Positions 33,657 to 63,954 of a stretch of 64,000 nucleotides of DNA are shown here, in pieces. The translations under genes were made by a program, and so were the position numbers. Below the pieces are notes generated by a model, which was not told the origin of the DNA, did not search any database, and saw only the letters and a program-made list of their open reading frames with translations. Source of the DNA: Synechococcus sp. (GTDB taxonomy: Bacteria; Cyanobacteriota; Cyanobacteriia; PCC-6307; Cyanobiaceae); the NCBI GenBank assembly GCA_047285535.1, contig JBJBDC010000001.1:64136-128135 (forward strand), in the 5' to 3' direction. Within the stretch, counting starts at the first letter, position 1; every line of letters begins with the position of its first letter.

Positions 33657-34060
33657 TTGGACATCGATTGTAAGTTGTGTTGATTATAATCTCTCTTTAT
33701 GTCTATGGAGATCTCTGTAGGCACAAGCAAAACTTGGTGAAACACGTTCTTTTTGGCAAGTATTAAAGATCTTCCAGTACGCCATAAGTGATGTTTGCGC
33801 GGTGATAAGTGCTAACGGTTTTTTCAGCTACCTCTAGACGTCAATTAAATACGTCGTGATCGACTCTCTCTCATCATTTGATTCATAAAAGTCTCAGAGA
33901 CTTAATGCATTCCTTGGCCTCTGAAGACCTATGGGGCTAAACCGAACCTCAACCGTACCTATATCTTTCTTGTTGAGGAAAACCCTCCCTGATTGTTGGG
34001 TTTGCCCTCTACCGTTGTTCCACTTATTCCAACAAGTATGTATCAACACGCATGATCAAA

Positions 34061-35926
34061 ATGACCAAAGTAGTTGGAATCGATCTAGGCACAACCAATA
34101 GCTGTGTCTCTGTGATTGAGGGTGGTATCCCAACGGTTATCGCTAATGCTGAGGGATTTCGAACAACCCCATCGGTTGTCGCCTACTCCAAAGGCAAAGA
34201 CCATTTGGTTGGACAGATTGCTAAACGCCAAGCGGTGATGAATCCGGAGAACACATTTGGATCCGTTAAACGCTTCATTGGACGTCGCTCCGATGAGATC
34301 ACCAATGAATCCAGGGATGTCCCCTACGCAGTTGAGTCAGAAGGAACCAAGGTCAAGCTCAAATCACCATTCATGGATAAGTCCTTCTCCCCAGAAGAAA
34401 TCAGTGCCAGTGTGCTGCGCAAGCTTGCTGATGACGCCTCCAAATATCTGGGTGAAACCGTGACGCAGGCCGTAGTGACTGTTCCTGCCTACTTCAACGA
34501 CTCTCAACGCCAGGCCACCAAAGATGCAGGGAAGATTGCGGGATTAGAAGTCCTGAGAATCATCAATGAACCCACTGCAGCAGCACTGGCTTATGGCTTG
34601 GACAAGAAAGATGCAGAGAAGATCCTTGTTTTTGACTTAGGAGGGGGAACCTTTGATGTCTCTGTCCTGGAGGTAGGCGATGGCGTCTTTGAAGTGATCA
34701 GCACTTGTGGTGATGATCATTTGGGTGGAGACAACTTTGACAAAGTCCTCGTTGACTACATGGCTGAGTCTTTCAAGAAGGATGAAGGTATCGATCTTAG
34801 ACATGACAGTCAGGCACTACAAAGACTCACAGAGGCAGCAGAGAAGATGAAGATCGAACTTTCATCCTCCACTCAGAGTGAGTTAAATCTGCCATTCATC
34901 ACTGCCACTGCGGATGGACCAAAACACCTAACCATGACGGTCACAAGAGGTCAATTTGAGGAGTTGTCTTCAGATTTGATCGACCGTTGTAAAAAGCCTA
35001 TTGATCAGGCTCTAAAGGATGCAAAACTCGCCATTTGCGATCTGAATGAAGTGGTGATGGTGGGAGGGAGTTCCCGCATTCCATCAGTACTAGAGCTGGT
35101 TAAGGCTGCGACAGGCAAAGAACCAAACCAAACCGTGAACCCTGATGAAGTAGTGGCGATTGGTGCTGCTATTCAGGGAGGTGTTCTATCGGGAGAGGTG
35201 AAAGACATTCTTCTCTTGGATGTCACTCCTCTATCTCTTGGAGTGGAGACGATGGGTAGTGTTGTGAATGTAATGGTTCCGAGAAATACAACCGTTCCCA
35301 CTCACAAAACGGAGATCTATTCCACGGCAATGGATGGACAAACCACAGTGGAAATTCATGTGCTGCAAGGTGAGCGCCAAATGGCCTCTGACAACAAGAG
35401 CCTGGGAACCTTCCGTCTGGATGGAATCACTCAAGCCCCTCGTGGTGTTCCTCAGGTCGAAGTGGCCTTTGACATCGATGCCAATGGCATCCTGAGTGTC
35501 ACCGCAAAGGACAAAGGATCAGGCAAGCAGCAAGCAATCACCATTACAGGGGCATCCACTTTGAGTGCGGAAGAAGTCGATCGGATGGTGAAAGATGCCG
35601 AGGCCAACGCTGACTCTGATCAGCTGAAGCGACAATCAATCGACACCAAGAATCAAGCTGAATCCATTCTTTATCAGGGTGAAAAACAACTTGCAGAACT
35701 TGGGGGAAAGGTTTCTCCTGAAGCTAAGACTAAAGTTGTGTTGGTTCTCAATGAACTCAAAGATGCCCTTCGCTCTGATGACACACAGATCATCAAGGAA
35801 AGAGTTGAAGCTGTCCAGTTGGCCCTTATGGAGATGGGCACCTCTGCATATCATCAGGAAGAATCCACCACCGATTCCCAGGATGATGATGTGATCGACG
35901 CTGAATTCGTTGACTCACCCAAGTGA
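34061..35926 (+). CDS. dnaK: Molecular chaperone DnaK (island copy)
   Basis: [44 protein letters not shown] tail. Confidence 0.97.
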
Positions 35927-38707: not shown

Positions 38708-39309
38708 GAGTTTAACGAAACGACAATGTAATGCCGTCTAAGTATAGAATCCTTATAGTGAGCATCATGCCCATTTGCGTATAGATGGAGTCTATTTACA
38801 AGTTGGTTTCACCTAAAAACATTAAGTTGTTGTTAGAGCAGTTTTATCAAAGTAGACAGTGTTTCGTCCGTTGAGTTCATGAGTTTCGCATCTTTAAAAA
38901 GGGATGGGGCCTGTTTAGATCAAGGATGACTTTACTTGTTGAGAATCACGCCATCGGAAGTTGAATTTTTCCGTTCCTATCCCTTACAGCGTAGTCGATG
39001 TGCTGGAGATGATTTGCTTGTAAACAACCAACGCTCTAATGTCTTGTCTATTCGCATAAGCTATCTGGTGAGGACTCTCGATGGTGATGCTGTGTTCAGC
39101 ATCATGGATTCTCAACTCTTGCCTCGTTCATACGTTTGCTTTGCTCATAGTCCGTAAGGATATTCAGGATAATCCCAAAACTGACTCGAAAAAATATAAA
39201 TTCTTTGATGATTTGGCTAGCATCGCTAAGCAAGTATGTGTTGATTAATAGTGATTTTTTGAATGGCTGGGTTTGCTCTCAGTCTTTGCAGGATTTCAGT
39301 GTGTTGGTT

Positions 39310-39558
39310 ATGGCGCCAATAATAAAACTTGTTGTAAAGGCGTTCCCATGTTTTGCTCTCGTCAGCAGAGATAGTGAAGGTCACGGCAATGTTTATGCGA
39401 AAGAGCCCCGTATGGAATTGGCAGCACCAGATGCGGGATGGGTGTTCCACGAGCGTGCCGAACAGCTCAATGGTCGCCTTGCAATGATTGGATTCGTCGC
39501 TGCGATAGCCACGGAACTGATCAGTGGCGAAGGCTTGCTACACGCCATTGGGCTTTAA
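39310..39558 (+). CDS. hli: High-light-inducible protein (HLIP)
   Basis: NVYAKEPRM...AEQLNGRLAMIGFVAA...ISGEGLL; start uncertain. Confidence 0.9.
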   Translation: MAPIIKLVVKAFPCFALVSRDSEGHGNVYAKEPRMELAAPDAGWVFHERAEQLNGRLAMIGFVAAIATELISGEGLLHAIGL

Positions 39559-40759: not shown

Positions 40760-41860
40760 CTACTGGTCGATCCCAGCTGCGCTGATCAGACGTAGCTGCA
40801 CTGGCGGGATGAGCGCCTGAACCTGCAAAAACGCTGCTTCGCGCAATCGTCGATTGCTTGTGTGTTCTGACCGCATTGCTTCTCCAGCGTGACTGATCAA
40901 GGCGGCTTGGCAGCAGCGCTGAGCCAGGATAAGAGCTGCTGCCCGGAGGTCATAGTGCGTTGCCTCCGACAGAGTATTGGGGTTGTCGGTAGCGGCATAA
41001 CAGCGTGCTCGCAGATCTCTTGCTTCCTCTAAGAGTTGTCGGCCTACGTTGAGCCAGATCTCTCGATCACGGCGTGCTGCTTGTTGTTCAAGATCGGCTA
41101 GGGCTGCTCGGATCAGCCCGAAGGCAGCTGGATTCGCAAACCGGGTACGGGCCTGATCGGCTAGGCGCCATTCCTTGATTGGCGTCGTACTCATCAAAGC
41201 CCCCTCGTTGATGAGAAACCTCTCGAACATCGCTGGGCGACTCCATGTGCCATTCATCACCATCAGCTCCAAAGGTGGTTGGATGTGTAAACCCGGAGGG
41301 AACGATGAGCGCAGCTGTTTTGATAAAAGAAAGCCCAAAACCGGTGCGTCTGCCTCCTTCCCTGCCCTGATTTGCAAGGCCACAACGTCAGCCAGATCCC
41401 AGCCCGTGATCCAGTCCAGCTTGCCGTTCAGCTCCCAGCCATCGTTCACTGCTTGAGCGATGGGGTTGGCCTGGCCAGGCCTACGTAAATGCGCGAAGGC
41501 TGTGGCACCAACCGCCTTGCCGCACTCCATGAGATTCAGCCAACGATCTTTGAGGGTCGTGTTTTCTGAGCCCTGCAGCAGACGTAAGGGCGACTGGTGC
41601 TGCGCCCAACAAAACCACACTGCGACGTCAGCCATGGCTAGTCGTTCAGCCCGCTCACGCTGCAGAGGCACTGATGGTGCCAGTCCCAGCCAGCCAATGG
41701 CAGCCAATTGATCCATCACTGAGCGAGGTAATCCCTTGCGCTCATGCTGTTCTGCGTTTGCTGTAATCAAAGCCAGCAAGACTTCTGCCGCAGAGTCCGC
41801 CGCTATCCCTTCGTCGTAGGGCCCCAAGGGATCATGCATAGACATCAGCAGAAAGCCCAA
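40760..41860 (-). CDS. Acyl-CoA dehydrogenase-superfamily flavoprotein
   Basis: GWELNGKLDWITG, MNGTWS, RRLREAAF. Confidence 0.8.
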   Translation of the reverse strand: MGFLLMSMHDPLGPYDEGIAADSAAEVLLALITANAEQHERKGLPRSVMDQLAAIGWLGLAPSVPLQRERAERLAMADVAVWFCWAQHQSPLRLLQGSENTTLKDRWLNLMECGKAVGATAFAHLRRPGQANPIAQAVNDGWELNGKLDWITGWDLADVVALQIRAGKEADAPVLGFLLSKQLRSSFPPGLHIQPPLELMVMNGTWSRPAMFERFLINEGALMSTTPIKEWRLADQARTRFANPAAFGLIRAALADLEQQAARRDREIWLNVGRQLLEEARDLRARCYAATDNPNTLSEATHYDLRAAALILAQRCCQAALISHAGEAMRSEHTSNRRLREAAFLQVQALIPPVQLRLISAAGIDQ

Positions 41861-43499: not shown

Positions 43500-44285
43500 T
43501 TGAAGATGAGAGTATGGTCCAAGAGTCTTTTGGTTGGATTGCTCCTGATGCCTCTGCTCAGGTATTCAGCACAATCAGCCCCTTCTTCCGATAATAGGTG
43601 TGAGAATGTAAGGATTGGAACTTATCTGATTGTCAGTCAAGGAAGTAATCAAGGTATCCCTATAGGGCAACTTCAACTAGAAACCTTGAATGACGACGGA
43701 ACTTTGACTGGTATTCGTTTTCTCAGAGATGGAACGCGCTATAGCAACGTGAATTACACGGGCCGATGGGACAATGTTGCTAGTTGTCAGATACGAATCA
43801 GGCGAGATCTTAGCAGTTTCAACAGCAACGTTCTGTTGACAACACAAGGAGATCCTTATTTTTCTATCGTTACAACACCTGGAATTGTTGCAAGCGAACG
43901 TTGGTTCTTGCAATTAGATGCGCCTTGTACAGAAGATACTATTGTTGGAGATGTATTAAGTCTTCAGCAAGGTCATCAGTTGATCAATGGACAATGGAAA
44001 CCAAATACAGTAATTCAGAGGGAAGAGTGGAGCAAGTGGAGAATGAATGGTGTTGCTATGTCTTCTTATTCTGGGAAGGATGAAGTCGCTACTTATCAGG
44101 GTCAATTTACCCAAACTGATAATTGCGTGGGTAGAATTGACCAACAGGATAGCAACGGGGTACCCTACTCTTACATCGCCATTCTTCGTCCTAATGGTAA
44201 AGGATATGCATATCTACAAACACAAGGTGATTCACTTACTGTGGCAGTTCTCAACCGTATCGATCTGAATAGATCACCTCAATGA
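43500..44285 (+). CDS. Secreted beta-rich protein with internal duplication
   Basis: Signal peptide; two halves each with an early Cys and Y-x-G-x-W/F...C motif. Confidence 0.7.
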   Translation: MKMRVWSKSLLVGLLLMPLLRYSAQSAPSSDNRCENVRIGTYLIVSQGSNQGIPIGQLQLETLNDDGTLTGIRFLRDGTRYSNVNYTGRWDNVASCQIRIRRDLSSFNSNVLLTTQGDPYFSIVTTPGIVASERWFLQLDAPCTEDTIVGDVLSLQQGHQLINGQWKPNTVIQREEWSKWRMNGVAMSSYSGKDEVATYQGQFTQTDNCVGRIDQQDSNGVPYSYIAILRPNGKGYAYLQTQGDSLTVAVLNRIDLNRSPQ

Positions 44286-44880
44286 AGTCAATGAGAGTAA
44301 AATCTATGATTTTCTGAGGCAAACGACTTTGTAGGTGTTCAATGTGGACTATCGCTTCCAAAAGAATATTCATTTTTATGTTTGATTCTGTATTTGAAGT
44401 AAAGCTAGAATCAAATGAATTGATCCCATTGGTTACTCTAAGAGTCGCTTGCTAGTCATTTGAATAAGGGTTGATATCTCTGCGTGTGAACCTCTGTTCT
44501 AGTGAGAGGTTTGCCTATGGATATTCTTTTCCTTCGTAAGAAATAGCATGCGCCTCCCTGGATACGCGCAATATCTCTCAATACAGGTCTATGAAACTTC
44601 TTAATGCTTCTCTTCTGTGATACTTTCTTGATTAAATTAGACTACTTTCTTCTACAATCCTTGGCAAGAATGCTTTGTATCATGCTACTTCCAAGTTTTA
44701 CGAATCAATACCACACTTTTTGATTTATTTGCCTAAATGGACAGTATTTATCACTTTTTGCCCTTTTGAACCCACTGGCCTTGGTGAAATTGTTCGTCCG
44801 CTGACTTTTTTGATGCAATACTTTGTCTTTACCGGTTGCATGTATTAAAATTATCCGATGAATAGCTTACAAGACTCAGA

Positions 44881-45501
44881 ATGGAATCATTTATTCCAAG
44901 TAAAACCGCTCTTCTTCTGATTGGTTTTCAGCGAGATTATTTTGATCCTGATGGCATTCTCTACTCTGTCGTGGAAGAATCTCATCGCCTTTCCGGTACC
45001 CTCGAGCACACTATTGACGTTCTGGATAAGATTATTGATTCTTCCGTTACTATAGTAAATACACCAATAGTTTTTAGCGAGACATATCATGAAATTGAGA
45101 ATCCCATGGGTATACTAAAAGCCATTAAGGATTCTGAAGCTTTTAAGATAGGTACAACTGGGGCAGAAACTATTCCTCAGATTCTGAACTATGGTGATCG
45201 AATTGAAGTGATTCCAGGGAAGCGAGGCTTTAATGCATTTTCGAATACAGCATTAGAAGATCTGCTTGTTCAGAAGGGGATAGAACGTCTTGTCATTGCG
45301 GGTTGTGTTACATCTCTCTGTGTTAATGCCACTGCATTGGCGGCAAAGGAAAACGGTTTTGATGTAACCATCCTGTCCGATTGCACTTCGAGTCGAACGC
45401 CAGTAGAACAAGATATGTTCTGCAAGGAGATATTTCCCTTATTTACTAATGTTGTTGACCATAATCAATTTGCTACTGACATTGTTAGCAATAGTGATTG
45501 A
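44881..45501 (+). CDS. Isochorismatase-family cysteine-hydrolase-like protein
   Basis: TALLLIGFQRDYF, GKRGFNAFSNT.L, AGCVTSLCVNATA, GFDVTILSDC. Confidence 0.88.
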   Translation: MESFIPSKTALLLIGFQRDYFDPDGILYSVVEESHRLSGTLEHTIDVLDKIIDSSVTIVNTPIVFSETYHEIENPMGILKAIKDSEAFKIGTTGAETIPQILNYGDRIEVIPGKRGFNAFSNTALEDLLVQKGIERLVIAGCVTSLCVNATALAAKENGFDVTILSDCTSSRTPVEQDMFCKEIFPLFTNVVDHNQFATDIVSNSD

Positions 45502-47054
45502 TGTCTATCGACCGTTATCAGGACCCAGATGCCACAGCAGTAGCTCAGTCTAGGCTTATTGAACGCTTAGCTGAGTCAGAGAGAAACATAAGAGATATTC
45601 TTTCTAATCTACCAGTTATAGTTGCTCGTTTTGATAGGAATGGTCAAGGTGAAATTGAATTTCTTAACATGGCTTGGAACAGAATATTAGGATATGAAAT
45701 TGATTCTAGTTTGGGCACTGCAATTGATTCTTATGTATTGGCTGATGATCTAGACAAGTGGAGAAATCTTGTCAACAACAGCAAGAAAAGCCATGCCGAT
45801 CCATCAGATGGCCAAGTTCGTTTTCAAGACTCAAAAGGTGAGACTCGCTGGTTGAAGGTTAAATTCGATCAGCGTGAAGGTGGTGAGGTCATTGTTCTCA
45901 TGGAAGATTTTACTGAGCGACGCCGCCTTGATGCAGAACTTTTGCGTGCTCAGCGATTAGAGAGTATTGGAAGACTTGCTGGAGGTTTAGCACATGACTT
46001 TAATAATCTTTTGCAGGTTATTATGGGGTATATTGATATTAGTCAAAGGGTCAATAAAAATCATGGAATCGATACTAAGTATTTGAAGATCGCAAATCAG
46101 GCTTGTGTGCGTGCCGCTGGGCTAACGAAGCAAATGTTGTCTTTTAGTAAAGGTGGAAATCCCGTTCGTAAGATTTGGGCCTTAGAGGATGTTGTGAAGG
46201 AAGCAATGGAGATGAGTTTACATGGTTCAAATGTTAAAGCTGATCTTCAATGCGAACCCTCTATTCCTAAGGTTGATATTGACTCTGGTCAGATTCACCA
46301 GGTTTTTAACAATATTATTTTAAATGCTCAGCAGGCGATGCCAGATGGGGGGCAAATCAAACTAGATATCCGTAGTGAATGGAATGGATCTGATGGTAAG
46401 CAATCTAGGGAAATGGTTGTTGTAGAAGTCACCGATAGTGGTAATGGCATTCAACCATCGGATATGGAGAAGATCTTTGATCCTTTCTTTACAACTAAAA
46501 AACAGGGAACTGGTCTTGGCTTAACAAGTGCCTATTGGATCGTGCAGAGACATGACGGTGATTTACAAATTAAAAGCGAGATTGGATTAGGAACAGTTGT
46601 CCGAATTTCATTACCAGCAGTTCGTAATGTATCGATTCCATTCGAATCGGAAGTTATTGATCAAAAAACATCATCTCCATTAAGGATATTAATCATGGAT
46701 GATGAAGATTTGGTTCGATCAACGTTGGAATTAATGCTTCAAGAGCATGGTCATATTGTCACTAGTACAGAGCATGGTCAAGAGTGTTTAGATACGTACA
46801 TGGAAGCACTCGATAAGAATCAAACTTTTGATTTGGTCATTCTTGACCTTACAATTTCTGGAGGTAAGGGAGGCCTTTGGACCATTAATCAGTTGCGTAA
46901 AGTGAATCCCTCGGTGAAAGCAGTCGTCGCGAGTGGGTATAGCCAAGATAGCATTTTATCTGATTACAAAAAGAGTGGTTTCTGTGCAGTCTTGCAAAAG
47001 CCTTTCGATATGCACCTGTTGACTCGATGTTTAGCCGAGGTGATGTTTGACTGA
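45501..47054 (+). CDS. Cytoplasmic PAS-HisKA-HATPase-REC hybrid histidine kinase
   Basis: PAS (FLNMAW..ILGY), H-box AHDFNNLL, N-box NIILNA, DSGNGI, FDPFFTTK, GTGLGL, receiver DDED...D...KPF; no TM. Confidence 0.92.
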   Translation: MSIDRYQDPDATAVAQSRLIERLAESERNIRDILSNLPVIVARFDRNGQGEIEFLNMAWNRILGYEIDSSLGTAIDSYVLADDLDKWRNLVNNSKKSHADPSDGQVRFQDSKGETRWLKVKFDQREGGEVIVLMEDFTERRRLDAELLRAQRLESIGRLAGGLAHDFNNLLQVIMGYIDISQRVNKNHGIDTKYLKIANQACVRAAGLTKQMLSFSKGGNPVRKIWALEDVVKEAMEMSLHGSNVKADLQCEPSIPKVDIDSGQIHQVFNNIILNAQQAMPDGGQIKLDIRSEWNGSDGKQSREMVVVEVTDSGNGIQPSDMEKIFDPFFTTKKQGTGLGLTSAYWIVQRHDGDLQIKSEIGLGTVVRISLPAVRNVSIPFESEVIDQKTSSPLRILIMDDEDLVRSTLELMLQEHGHIVTSTEHGQECLDTYMEALDKNQTFDLVILDLTISGGKGGLWTINQLRKVNPSVKAVVASGYSQDSILSDYKKSGFCAVLQKPFDMHLLTRCLAEVMFD

Positions 47055-49733: not shown

Positions 49734-49999
49734 TGCCTTTCTCTATCCAATGTCTTGAAATTAAGATGTTATTTTCTTTCTGAGCTATTCCCTTAACGAA
49801 ACTCTATCGGATTTAATTTTTCCTTTAGGTTTTACTTGTCCGTTTTCTTCTTTATTGCTTGCAGTAGTGAGTTTTTTACTGTGGGTTTTTTGTTCATCTT
49901 CCCTGTCATTTGATCTTTAAATTTACCTCGTCCTGTTGAAGTTCGCTTGATTGTTGACGCTAAATATACTGTTTAATGTTTACTGTCTTTGCATCGACT

Positions 50000-50284
50000 A
50001 TGTCTCTCGATCAACTAAGAGCTTTCCTTATCAGGATGCAGCATGATGTAAAGCTTATGTCTGATATCCTTACCGCTTCTAATGCAGATGATGATGCAAA
50101 TTATGCAGCAACTTTAGGTTATGAGTTCTCTGGTGATGAACTCTTACGCCAATCTGGCAAGCAAGTAGGACAAGTTACTGTGTTTAATCGGCAACCACAC
50201 GGTGAGTATCATCGATTACACTTTTTTCTGATTGGATTCCTATCCCAATACATTAATATTGATCTAAATTCTAATTCATCTTGA
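50000..50284 (+). CDS. Nif11-like leader peptide protein
   Basis: MSLDQLRAFL..MQHD..L......A...A..LGYEFSGDEL Nif11 pattern. Confidence 0.75.
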   Translation: MSLDQLRAFLIRMQHDVKLMSDILTASNADDDANYAATLGYEFSGDELLRQSGKQVGQVTVFNRQPHGEYHRLHFFLIGFLSQYINIDLNSNSS

Positions 50285-50924: not shown

Positions 50925-51989
<1,065 letters not shown>

Positions 51990-52105: not shown

Positions 52106-52822
52106 CTATGTATTTGTGCATGCTCCGTTAGTGGTGATCACTACCTGATCACCCAGTTTCATTTCTTTTAACAGTTTTGTTATGTCTTTGTTGTTCATGT
52201 TGATGCAACCACCAGTTACTGCCTTGCCAACTCGTCCTTCATCGTTGGTTCCATGAATTGCAAAGCTGTACCATCTGAATTTTCCTGCATATTCATTAAA
52301 TTCAAATGGTTGTTTGTTTTCTGGCACTGGTTTCAGGCTTATATATCCCATTCCATACTCATTCTTTCTCCCATCTCCCTGAAAATCAATTGAGCTCATG
52401 TCATTAAATAAGTTCTTTACCAGGTATTCCTTGCTTTTCCCTGATTTGTTTATAAGTGATTCTTCCATTTCAAATTTCTCATTGCTTAATATAGCATTGA
52501 CTTTGAATGTTCCTAGCGGTGTCATCCCTTCTTCGAATTGACTACCTTTGCAACTAACTCCATATTTGCCAAACCCAACTTTGAATATTTCATTCCCCAC
52601 TTCTTTGTTTATTGTGGCATAGCTTTCGTCAGGTTTTCTTTGATTTAAATGTATCTGTATTTTAGCGCCTTGACTTTTTGCTGGATCCAATGGATCCTTT
52701 ATCGTTGTACATCCTGCAAGGACGCACAGTATTCCCGCCAAGCCTAGATGTTTTTTCGCCATCAATGAGTACATCTTGGACGTCACTTCCCTATGCTGCG
52801 CTTTCCTTTGCCTTTTCACCAC
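52106..52822 (-). CDS. L,D-transpeptidase (YkuD)-family lipoprotein
   Basis: LAGC lipobox, TPLGTF, IHGT...GGCINM catalytic His/Cys; start uncertain. Confidence 0.85.
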   Translation of the reverse strand: MVKRQRKAQHREVTSKMYSLMAKKHLGLAGILCVLAGCTTIKDPLDPAKSQGAKIQIHLNQRKPDESYATINKEVGNEIFKVGFGKYGVSCKGSQFEEGMTPLGTFKVNAILSNEKFEMEESLINKSGKSKEYLVKNLFNDMSSIDFQGDGRKNEYGMGYISLKPVPENKQPFEFNEYAGKFRWYSFAIHGTNDEGRVGKAVTGGCINMNNKDITKLLKEMKLGDQVVITTNGACTNT

Positions 52823-61574: not shown

Positions 61575-62507
61575 ATGGCGTTGCTATGGCTTTGGTTAGG
61601 CGCCGTTGGCTTGGGGCTGAGCCTTAGCGGTTGCCGGCCAGGGAGTGAAACCTCTCACGTGGAACCCTCCACTGTGGTCGGTGCTGGAGCCACGTTCCCA
61701 GCTCCGTTGTATCAACGCTGGTTTAGTCATCTTCGGGTTCGTCAGGGCCTCAGCCTGGGATATGACCCGGTGGGCTCCGAAGATGGGGAACACCAGCTTC
61801 TGGCTGGGATCGTGGACTTCGCAGGCACTGAGCTCGATGATCACACCGGCCTCTTGCTTGGTTTGCGTAGCGACCGATGGCTGCGCATTCCCGTGACGGC
61901 TGGGGCCGTTGCCATTGCTTATAACCACCCTGGCTGCGAGCTCTCCCTGACCCGTGAGCAGTTGCGGCTGATTGTCTCTGAGCAGATTGACGATTTCGGT
62001 CAACTTGGCTGTGCCAAACAACCGATCACTTTGTTCGTGCGTCAGAACGGCTCAGGCACAACGGCGCATCTGCGCCGTTACCTGAACGCTACTGCTCAGG
62101 TCTGGCATCACCCCAGGGCTTTGCGCGTGAAGAGCAATGAGGCGATGGCCACAGCCCTGCTGCAGCGACCTGGGTCGATTGGCTACCTCAACACCGTATT
62201 TCTCAATGGCCGTCGCAGCTTGCAGGTGGCTTCTCTGGAGACGGATCAAGGCTCGTTTGCGTTTCCTGAGCGGGCGCTTGAGATTGAGGGTCCTGATCAT
62301 TCCAGAGTTAGATATCCACTGACTGCAGTCAGTTGGATGGTGATGCGCCGCAAGGGGTTGGCAGACAAGGCTGCGGTGTTGAGAGAGGCCATTGCTTACG
62401 GCCTTTCTGCAGAAGGACAAGCTGCTGCCTTGGGCCTTGGTTATCTCCCCTTGCCTGAGGCTCTTTTGGAGCACGCACGGTTGCAACTCGAGGCTTTGCA
62501 GCCATGA
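61575..62507 (+). CDS. Divergent PstS-like substrate-binding lipoprotein
   Basis: LSGC lipobox, GAGATFPAPLYQRW, GAVAIAYN, RQNGSGTT, GSIGY, YPL. Confidence 0.82.
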   Translation: MALLWLWLGAVGLGLSLSGCRPGSETSHVEPSTVVGAGATFPAPLYQRWFSHLRVRQGLSLGYDPVGSEDGEHQLLAGIVDFAGTELDDHTGLLLGLRSDRWLRIPVTAGAVAIAYNHPGCELSLTREQLRLIVSEQIDDFGQLGCAKQPITLFVRQNGSGTTAHLRRYLNATAQVWHHPRALRVKSNEAMATALLQRPGSIGYLNTVFLNGRRSLQVASLETDQGSFAFPERALEIEGPDHSRVRYPLTAVSWMVMRRKGLADKAAVLREAIAYGLSAEGQAAALGLGYLPLPEALLEHARLQLEALQP

Positions 62508-63244
62508 GAGTTCGTGTTCCCCTCAAGCTTTCAGCGCAAGCCATCCGAGCGAAGGAGCATCACTTCCCGATGTTTCTGCTCACGGCGCTGTTGCCGATTG
62601 TGATGTTCCCCGTGGCTCGATTGGATGGATTCCTGTTCCAGCGGATAGCTCTTCCCTTGTCGGTCACGTTGCTGGTGTTGGAGTCCCTGCGGGCCATGCC
62701 GTCCTGGGTGGCTCAATTGGGCCCCATTCGCGTCAATGGGATCTACTGCTGCCTCGGTTACATCTCAGTGGTTGCGGTGTGGCTTCCTTTGCTGCCTTGG
62801 CAGAAGCTTCCCTTCGCTCTACAAATCATTTTGTTGGGCCTGCGGGCTGTCTTTTATCTGCTCACTGCAATCCGCATCGTTCAGGTGCTGGCCAATTGCG
62901 AGCGTGTGTCTGGGAAAACTCTGAGTCTGGGTGCCGCTGGCTATGTGCACCTCGGTTTGACGGCGGGTTTGCTGGCCACGGTGTTGCAGATGGCAGACCC
63001 TGACAGCTTCAATCTCGGTGCTGTTCCAGTGCAGGAATCCTTGGCTGCACGGTTGTCGTACTTTTCGTTCGTTACCTTGGGAAGCCTCGGTTATGGAGAT
63101 GTGGTACCAGCCAGTCCCATCGGGGAATCTTTCGCCGTTTTGCTGAGTCTCAGCAGCACGTTGTATCTCAGCTTGTTGATTGGTTTACTGCTGAGTCGCT
63201 TTATTACCTCAAGGGAAGACGAGATGCAGGAGAGACAGCAATGA
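62504..63244 (+). CDS. K-channel-family (Ion_trans_2) subunit, filter SLGYG
   Basis: YFSFVTLGSLGYGDVVP. Confidence 0.82.
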   Translation: MRVRVPLKLSAQAIRAKEHHFPMFLLTALLPIVMFPVARLDGFLFQRIALPLSVTLLVLESLRAMPSWVAQLGPIRVNGIYCCLGYISVVAVWLPLLPWQKLPFALQIILLGLRAVFYLLTAIRIVQVLANCERVSGKTLSLGAAGYVHLGLTAGLLATVLQMADPDSFNLGAVPVQESLAARLSYFSFVTLGSLGYGDVVPASPIGESFAVLLSLSSTLYLSLLIGLLLSRFITSREDEMQERQQ

Positions 63245-63954
63245 GCACGTGTTCATTGGCATTGCGTCTGCAGAAATTAGAACCCTGGTTTTATCAGTTT
63301 TTGCTTGCAACCCTGCTGCCTCTCTTGGTGATGCCTTTCACCAACCTTGATGGCAACGTGATTCAACGGGTGCTGTTGCCTCTGAGCACGTTGTGGATGG
63401 TGGTGGTGTCAGTGCGGATTGTGCCCAGGGATCTGTTGTTTATTGGCCGTTGGAAACCCTTTGCTCTCTACAGGCCCCTGGCTTTGTTGTGTGTTGTGGT
63501 GATGTGGCTGCCTTCTCTGCTCGGGCATCACACGTCGCTGACGCTGCATTGGCCGGTCCTGACAATCATTTGCAGCTTTTACCTGGTTACGGCCGTTGCC
63601 ATTGTGCTGATGCTGGCCAAGGTGGGACGCGTGAATGAACCCGTGCTTTGCCTCGGTGCTGCCGGTTATATCCACCTTGGTTTGACTGGCGGTCAGTTGG
63701 CGACAGCCTTGGAAGTGTTGCAGCCAGGCACCTTCAGCCTTGGCTTGATGTTGCCCGGTGAGGAACTGGTGGAGCGTTTGAGCTATTTCTCATTCGTTAC
63801 CCTTGGAACCCAGGGGTATGGAGACGTCCTGCCGTCGACGGCTACGGCAGAGAGTTTTGTGGTGTTGCTCAGTGTTTCAGCAACTTTGTACGTCACATTG
63901 ATGATCGGCTTGCTGGTGAGCCGTTATCTGCAAACACGAAAAATTGAAATTTAG
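63241..63954 (+). CDS. K-channel-family (Ion_trans_2) subunit, filter TQGYG
   Basis: YFSFVTLGTQGYGDVLP. Confidence 0.82.
   Translation: MSTCSLALRLQKLEPWFYQFLLATLLPLLVMPFTNLDGNVIQRVLLPLSTLWMVVVSVRIVPRDLLFIGRWKPFALYRPLALLCVVVMWLPSLLGHHTSLTLHWPVLTIICSFYLVTAVAIVLMLAKVGRVNEPVLCLGAAGYIHLGLTGGQLATALEVLQPGTFSLGLMLPGEELVERLSYFSFVTLGTQGYGDVLPSTATAESFVVLLSVSATLYVTLMIGLLVSRYLQTRKIEI

Follow-up and report, generated by a model that had tools for sequence, protein, structure and literature searches.

Introduction

D14/KAI2 and the sensor domain of BlaR1 are enzyme folds that have kept their nucleophile and signal on slow or blocked turnover. A different arrangement is found in Bacillus subtilis, where the hydrolase gene rsbQ is located directly upstream of the gene for RsbP, a protein with PAS and coiled-coil regions. 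The RsbQ study (PMC3183031) describes an RsbQ-PAS module whose output may be a phosphatase, a histidine kinase, or a diguanylate cyclase and proposes direct contact between the partners. In TrtA, a hydrolase of the isochorismatase fold, the active-site Lys lowers the pKa of the Cys, a water-activating role in hydrolysis of the thioester is proposed for the Asp, and helix alpha2 closes upon bound ligand (PMC7948467).

Here we describe a two-gene locus of Synechococcus sp. lying in a 64,000-nucleotide stretch of contig JBJBDC010000001.1 (assembly GCA_047285535.1), referred to below as the window. The original prediction was of a hydrolase fold repurposed as a sensor that docks on the N-terminal helix of a soluble kinase. 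As judged by sequence comparison, the hydrolase belongs to a clade of Gly-type isochorismatase-fold proteins that are coupled or fused to signalling proteins with a common short helix. The best explanation for the hydrolase and kinase is that they form a bipartite cytoplasmic sensor, a reading we consider probable.

Results

An overlapping hydrolase-kinase gene pair in a low-GC island

The upstream gene (44881..45501, + strand) encodes a 206-aa Gly-type isochorismatase-like (cysteine hydrolase) protein, the putative sensor subunit, and the downstream gene (45501..47054, +) encodes a soluble hybrid histidine kinase of 517 aa with the Pfam domain order PAS-HisKA-HATPase_c-receiver. The predicted TGATG stop/start overlap at 45499..45503 (+; TGA 45499-45501, ATG 45501-45503) is present in the sequence and implies translational coupling; overlaps of 1 or 4 bases were also found at all six loci from named genomes. 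A promoter and terminator scan performed at chance level (11 versus 8.7 promoters, 1 versus 2.1 terminators). In one metatranscriptome run (word share 0.11), two short contigs covered 44774-45032 and 45392-45571 at a depth of about 4, for which DNA carry-over is a possible source.

GC content is 0.40 in the two genes, 0.43 over 30-56 kb of the window, and 0.51 genome-wide. The low-GC island (30000-56000) also contains genes for Hsp70/DnaK (34052-35926), GAPDH (50925-51971), a YkuD L,D-transpeptidase (52106-52822), and a Nif11 peptide (49976-50284), as well as an hli-like gene (39205-39558). A DnaK orthologue is likewise found near the hydrolase-kinase module at one other locus (L001). A 261-aa protein encoded at 43500-44285 of the window has no Pfam or NCBIfam match, and a 60% homologue of it lies near the module at two loci (L014, L016). 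The 366-aa reading frame at 40760-41860 is without a Pfam match; by eye we take it to resemble an acyl-CoA dehydrogenase. Further along the window, at 61575-63954, a phosphate-binding-type PBP gene is followed by two overlapping Ion_trans_2 channel genes.

The kinase consists of a PAS domain (residues 30-139; 45588..45917, +), a kinase core (45969..46619, +) made up of HisKA (157-219, with His165) and HATPase_c (261-373), and a receiver domain (396-508; 46686..47024, +) with Asp449. His165, the N and G boxes, and the receiver residues Asp449, Ser478, and Lys500 are all intact, as expected of a hybrid sensor histidine kinase. The maximum 19-residue hydropathy is 1.18 and there is no transmembrane stretch, in agreement with the soluble kinase that was predicted. 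Also borne out was the claim that no response regulator or Hpt gene is nearby: of 18 receiver matches in the genome, the kinase's own is the only one within the window, and the only Hpt match of the genome is inside an 881-aa hybrid kinase at 2.93 Mb. No ChpT-type phosphotransferase (PF10090) was matched in the genome, and with this partner absent and a score of 235 bits against an NCBIfam cut-off of 1000, the kinase does not classify as a CckA orthologue.

The catalytic acid of the hydrolase is replaced by glycine throughout the clade

The 206-aa protein matches the Pfam family Isochorismatase (PF00857) with an E-value of 4e-37 (128 bits against a cut-off of 27) and is the sole isochorismatase match of its genome. 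Its predicted structure (mean pLDDT 85.9) is most similar to 3KL2, with a TM-score of about 0.9 and a Foldseek E-value of 2.5e-19. It falls below every NCBIfam cut-off, including those for the named equivalogs BiuH, PncA, YcaC, and RutB, the best score being 51 bits versus the 370 set for BiuH. Database labels of its homologues read cysteine hydrolase or nicotinamidase-related amidase and nothing else.

The Asp-Lys-Cys catalytic triad of the PF00857 superfamily is incomplete in this protein. When it was aligned to solved relatives and homologues, Gly15 (codon GGT, 44923..44925, +) fell on the position that biuret hydrolase 6XJM fills with its catalytic Asp and 3KL2 with a Glu, while Lys114 (45220..45222, +) and Cys147 (45319..45321, +) aligned with the triad Lys and Cys positions. 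Each of these three residues is present in 120/120 of the best 120 of 317 homologue hits. Among the 92 distinct proteins from the loci examined below, Gly is found in 92, Lys in 91 (Arg in the other), and Cys in 91, although the metagenome part of this set, some of it retrieved by an IG[FY]Q pattern, is biased toward Gly. Whole-genome profile searches free of this bias returned Gly in all 22 core-clade carriers. The replacement of Asp by Gly with retention of Lys and Cys was thus predicted correctly, with the refinement that the nearest sister group has Glu rather than Asp. A dN/dS of ~0.07-0.09 against three Synechococcus-type orthologues indicates that the hydrolase is under purifying selection, and together with the conservation in the best 120 of 317 hits it rules out a pseudogene or sequencing error.

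Other positions also set the clade apart. Tyr20, which adjoins the lost acid, is Tyr in 86/92 locus proteins, whereas 96% of Asp/Glu relatives have Phe, and Cys181 is found in 80% of 74 core rows versus 0% of 49 Asp/Glu rows. Positions conserved specifically in this clade include Tyr20, Phe21, Glu32, Asn118, Ser145, and Tyr/Phe188. Based on alignment to TrtA and BiuH, the clade-specific residues appear to map to the pocket, the lid, and the C-terminal helix.

Gly-type proteins group in one clade and are patchily distributed

A quick tree of 131 domains placed all 79 Gly rows within one 80-row clade (SH-aLRT 95) adjoining Glu-type proteins, with a support of 98 for its 75-row core; this tree is midpoint-rooted, carries no one-clade test, and does not allow the direction of transfer to be read. 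Across its more diverged rows, Cys147 is kept in 71/79 and Lys114 in 58/79, with Arg in 14.

The nearest named homologues come from marine Synechococcus (85-86% identity). Gly-type carriers were identified in 4/401 cyanobacterial genomes, 5/251 genomes of the family, 12/301 genomes in the phylum of G401, and, as 3 core and 4 basal carriers, among 201 genomes in the phylum of G403. In the quick tree the window's hydrolase falls among copies of planctomycete type, and other cyanobacterial copies lie elsewhere. This grouping and the patchy distribution would fit repeated transfer, and its scattered occurrence among marine Synechococcus and marine heterotrophs would point to a common chemical cue if the sensing role holds. 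No relative was detected among 82 pattern matches on viral contigs. Plasmids gave five pattern matches, and both of the two fetched were Glu-type; the ESM Atlas returned generic isochorismatase clusters only.

Several relatives at the edges of the clade were also recorded. At four loci (L120-L123), basal Gly-type hydrolases whose catalytic loop is Glu-type are encoded upstream of histidine kinases and possibly represent an earlier stage of the module. The fusion partners of two Glu-type sisters (P0264, P0179) are FIST sensory domains and alpha-acetolactate decarboxylase, which are possible clues to the ancestral substrate. In one core-clade member (L119, 1498-2097) the Cys is replaced by Gly and the gene is convergent with an adenylate-cyclase-like gene; the helix motif described below was looked for in this genome and not found.

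Gly-type hydrolases are followed by, or fused to, diverse signalling proteins

The original prediction included the proposal that IG[FY]QxDYF proteins precede signalling proteins with varied outputs, and downstream genes were tabulated accordingly. Following removal of 27 duplicates or loci fetched for other queries, 138 loci were examined. The core loci number 104; in 102 of them the sequence extends 150 bases or more downstream, and these correspond to 90 distinct proteins. The next gene matched a signalling domain at 82/90 distinct core-clade loci, and a signalling domain or the helix was found at 87/90. For the Asp/Glu controls the corresponding values were 0/30 (within 1.5 kb) and 0/30, with the caveat that only four of the 30 are sister Glu-type and that many are kin. 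The helix is still visible at five of the eight loci without a signalling match, which are short or broken reads. The true exceptions are L053, which has no partner, L067, where the sequence is cut off, and L119; L053 and L119 lack a co-oriented partner. At the four basal Gly loci a kinase is nearby, and helix scores are only weak.

The proposed association was upheld, and so was the diversity of outputs. Pfam found a signalling domain in 34/34 partners picked for diversity from 89, namely histidine kinases with or without receiver and Hpt domains, an HWE/HisKA_2 kinase, GGDEF and GGDEF-EAL proteins, a class III cyclase, a SpoIIE phosphatase (PP2C), and a Ser/Thr kinase. A second batch of 20 gave 11/12 for the Gly type versus 0/8 for controls. 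A PAS domain directly follows the helix in most partners. The surroundings of the cassette differ among 12 loci inspected, with no metabolic neighbour in common, so they offer no clue to a ligand.

Fusions were also observed. Among 19 long homologues, 15 have PAS/kinase domains, 2 have TIR domains, and 2 have hydrolase domains only; named sources of the PAS/kinase fusions include Desulfogranum mediterraneum, Ca. Thiosymbion oneisti, and Cellvibrionaceae. In P0165 the hydrolase is fused to GGDEF-EAL-receiver without a PAS domain. TIR domains are joined to a Gly-type hydrolase, in tandem in P0272, in the proteins P0272, P0279, and P0183, with a weak helix motif in the linker; these fusions may be eukaryotic, and P0183 is probably chimeric.

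Linkage at 82/90 loci, together with the fusions, is the opposite of what was expected if homologues had no tie to signalling genes, and it supports a modular system in which one hydrolase type is combined with varied outputs. It also makes it very improbable that a metabolic amidase and a kinase are simply co-regulated here as neighbours without contact, as the database labels and the few members that stand alone (L053) might suggest, given the 0/30 in controls, the repeated fusions, and a motif that tracks the hydrolase across unrelated outputs and chain positions.

A 14-residue helix accompanies the hydrolase irrespective of output and position

The motif occupies kinase residues 10-23 (45528..45569, +) and is a putative docking site. 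Its consensus among partners is D/E-L-x-x-x-A/I-Q/T-Y-R-L-x-E-x-L. Of the helix AQSRLIExLAESE that was proposed to precede the PAS domain, residues 10-23 proved to be partner-specific, and the ESE tail continues into the ordinary PAS N-terminal helix. A scoring matrix was trained on 52 PAS partners only and applied to held-out sequences. Among 6.05 million genome windows scored as background, one reached at least 20 bits (the kinase of the locus itself) and 18 reached at least 12. The held-out Ser/Thr kinases scored 28.3 bits (L070), 24.6 bits (L099-L102, which are near-identical), and 13.6 bits (L103), and the match was located within the last 31 residues, i.e. at the extreme C-terminus, in each. 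Cyclases lacking PAS scored 13.2 and 16.6 bits, and P0165 scored 19.1. The helix is hence conserved regardless of PAS and of position in the chain, as the prediction required.

In 18/18 PAS-kinase and GGDEF fusions scored, the best-scoring segment was the linker following the hydrolase. The linker helix of P0127, P0282, and P0283 was near chance and not above shuffles; the values for the TIR fusions were 60 and 29 of 2000 shuffles, and 0/2000 for P0183. Overall, the motif was found at 84/90 loci, a count that includes training rows, and the kinases at L038 and L068 are without a scoring helix. A 22-residue motif search of 401 cyanobacterial genomes gave 12 hits at E ≤0.05 and five at E <1e-4. 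The five include all four hydrolase carriers, two of them (G089, G372) outside the query. The fifth, in G260 (L158, 1138-1572), is a 144-aa kinase stump between transposase-like genes in a genome from which the Gly-type gene is absent. We rejected a generic PAS N-cap as the origin of the motif, given that the latter is also seen in PAS-less proteins and that ~396 other cyanobacterial genomes are almost devoid of it. Since the motif follows the hydrolase across unrelated enzymes and from the N- to the C-terminus, it is best read as the binding site of the hydrolase.

Structure prediction was also performed. When residues 1-349 of the natural fusion P0124 were modelled with AlphaFold2 (pTM 0.65), both domains came out well folded and their relative placement was without confidence. 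The motif forms one continuous helix (211-237) running into the PAS domain, with pLDDT values of 57-76 for linker and helix. A predicted complex of two hydrolase copies with kinase residues 5-140, supplied as alignments, scored 0.00 against a mark of 0.32; this run, which had no controls, speaks neither for nor against contact.

Discussion

The hydrolase most likely regulates its partner through the helix, and on balance we favour the view that it does so as a ligand-binding pseudoenzyme. We infer the contact, the ligand, and the loss of activity. In the mechanism we propose, an oligomer of the hydrolase fold would bind the partner helix, and the vestigial pocket would take up a small amide-, ureide-, or carbonyl-type molecule. 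Cys147, activated by Lys114, could still attack, and the acid that would activate water for deacylation is absent, so that, in place of turnover, the ligand would stay on the protein in a long-lived complex or as a thioacyl adduct. With the acid lost and Lys and Cys kept, a ligand is expected to bind or to acylate the protein without being released efficiently, which would make it a receptor. Closure of a mobile lid helix would then alter the grip on the partner helix, and this change could travel along the N-terminal helix of PAS into the coiled coil of the kinase to switch autophosphorylation of His165 and transfer to Asp449. A covalent trap specifically is a tentative proposal, weakened by the incomplete retention of Cys147 and Lys114 in the diverged rows (71/79 and 58/79).

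An active enzyme, slow or altered, is an unlikely alternative. As proposed for RsbQ, it would make or destroy a small molecule read by the partner, with the helix serving only as a tether. RsbQ requires an intact triad (PMC3183031), and here Lys114 and Cys147 are each kept in 91/92 locus proteins and most partners have a PAS domain right behind the helix. This alternative is kept alive by the clade-specific Tyr20, which could partly replace the lost acid. However, the acid is missing in 92/92, the Cys is also lost in some members, and the cyclase, Ser/Thr kinase, GGDEF-EAL (P0165), and TIR partners have no PAS domain to receive a product.

Rather improbable is a role as a thiol redox or electrophile sensor, built on a low-pKa Cys147 and the clade-specific Cys181, or as a ligand-free scaffold or inhibitor that clamps the partner off. 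The restriction of Cys181 to the clade is in line with the former, as is the TrtA cysteine that acquired mercaptoethanol in the crystal (PMC7948467). The latter has a precedent in the isochorismatase-like CrcA, which acts via binding a regulator (PMC10213629). Nevertheless, more pocket and lid positions appear to be conserved in the clade than a bare thiol or clamp would need.

Returning to the ligand-binding receptor, sharing of the helix across signalling enzymes points to an undescribed plug-in chemical sensor. At its most ambitious, and as a possibility we put forward with reserve, this would be a new receptor class in which an amidase, converted to a covalent trap with a single turnover, senses a small metabolite and governs whichever enzyme bears the docking helix. 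The 14 residues could then sit at the N-terminus, in a linker, or at the C-terminus, the two-gene cassette would span phyla, and the enzymes so controlled would range from histidine kinases, c-di-GMP enzymes, and adenylate cyclases to PP2C phosphatases, Ser/Thr kinases, and TIR proteins. If true, this would represent a new cytoplasmic sensor fold and a situation rare in bacteria, a short docking helix through which a single receptor is wired to six or more unrelated output enzyme classes. Because clade members are annotated as metabolic amidases, such a sensing role would be hidden in databases. Biosensor construction could also profit from a portable receptor-helix pair, and since the system is small and soluble, the hunt for its ligand is directly testable.

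The module is real, conserved, and apparently undescribed: full-text literature, mostly outside subscription journals, yielded no account of it, though a brief mention may exist. Comparison with D14/KAI2 and BlaR1 is one of analogy only, as folds and outputs differ. BiuH, TrtA, RutB, PncA, and 3KL2 of Streptomyces avermitilis share with the hydrolase the fold, the Lys and Cys, and the G-x-x-T-x-x-C loop. Unlike BiuH, TrtA, RutB, and PncA, the hydrolase has no Asp/Glu, and its neighbours are signalling rather than catabolic genes. 3KL2, the nearest solved relative, is itself no more than a "putative isochorismatase." In Pseudomonas aeruginosa, the isochorismatase-like protein CrcA (PA1677) acts by binding a regulatory protein, but it is distant in sequence (8CIB, E 7e-5), its target is the translational co-repressor Crc, and the part of the report consulted describes no kinase coupling or common docking helix (PMC10213629). 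In RsbQ-PAS as at this locus, the hydrolase gene immediately precedes that of a PAS protein, and outputs vary. RsbQ, however, is an alpha/beta hydrolase that depends on its intact triad and contacts the PAS fold (PMC3183031), whereas here Pfam and fold searches give an isochorismatase fold, the acid is Gly, the common helix is not part of PAS, and adenylate cyclase, Ser/Thr kinase, and TIR domains are found among the outputs as well. The module works like RsbQ-PAS, its closest working analogue, but by fold and triad it is not a member of that system.
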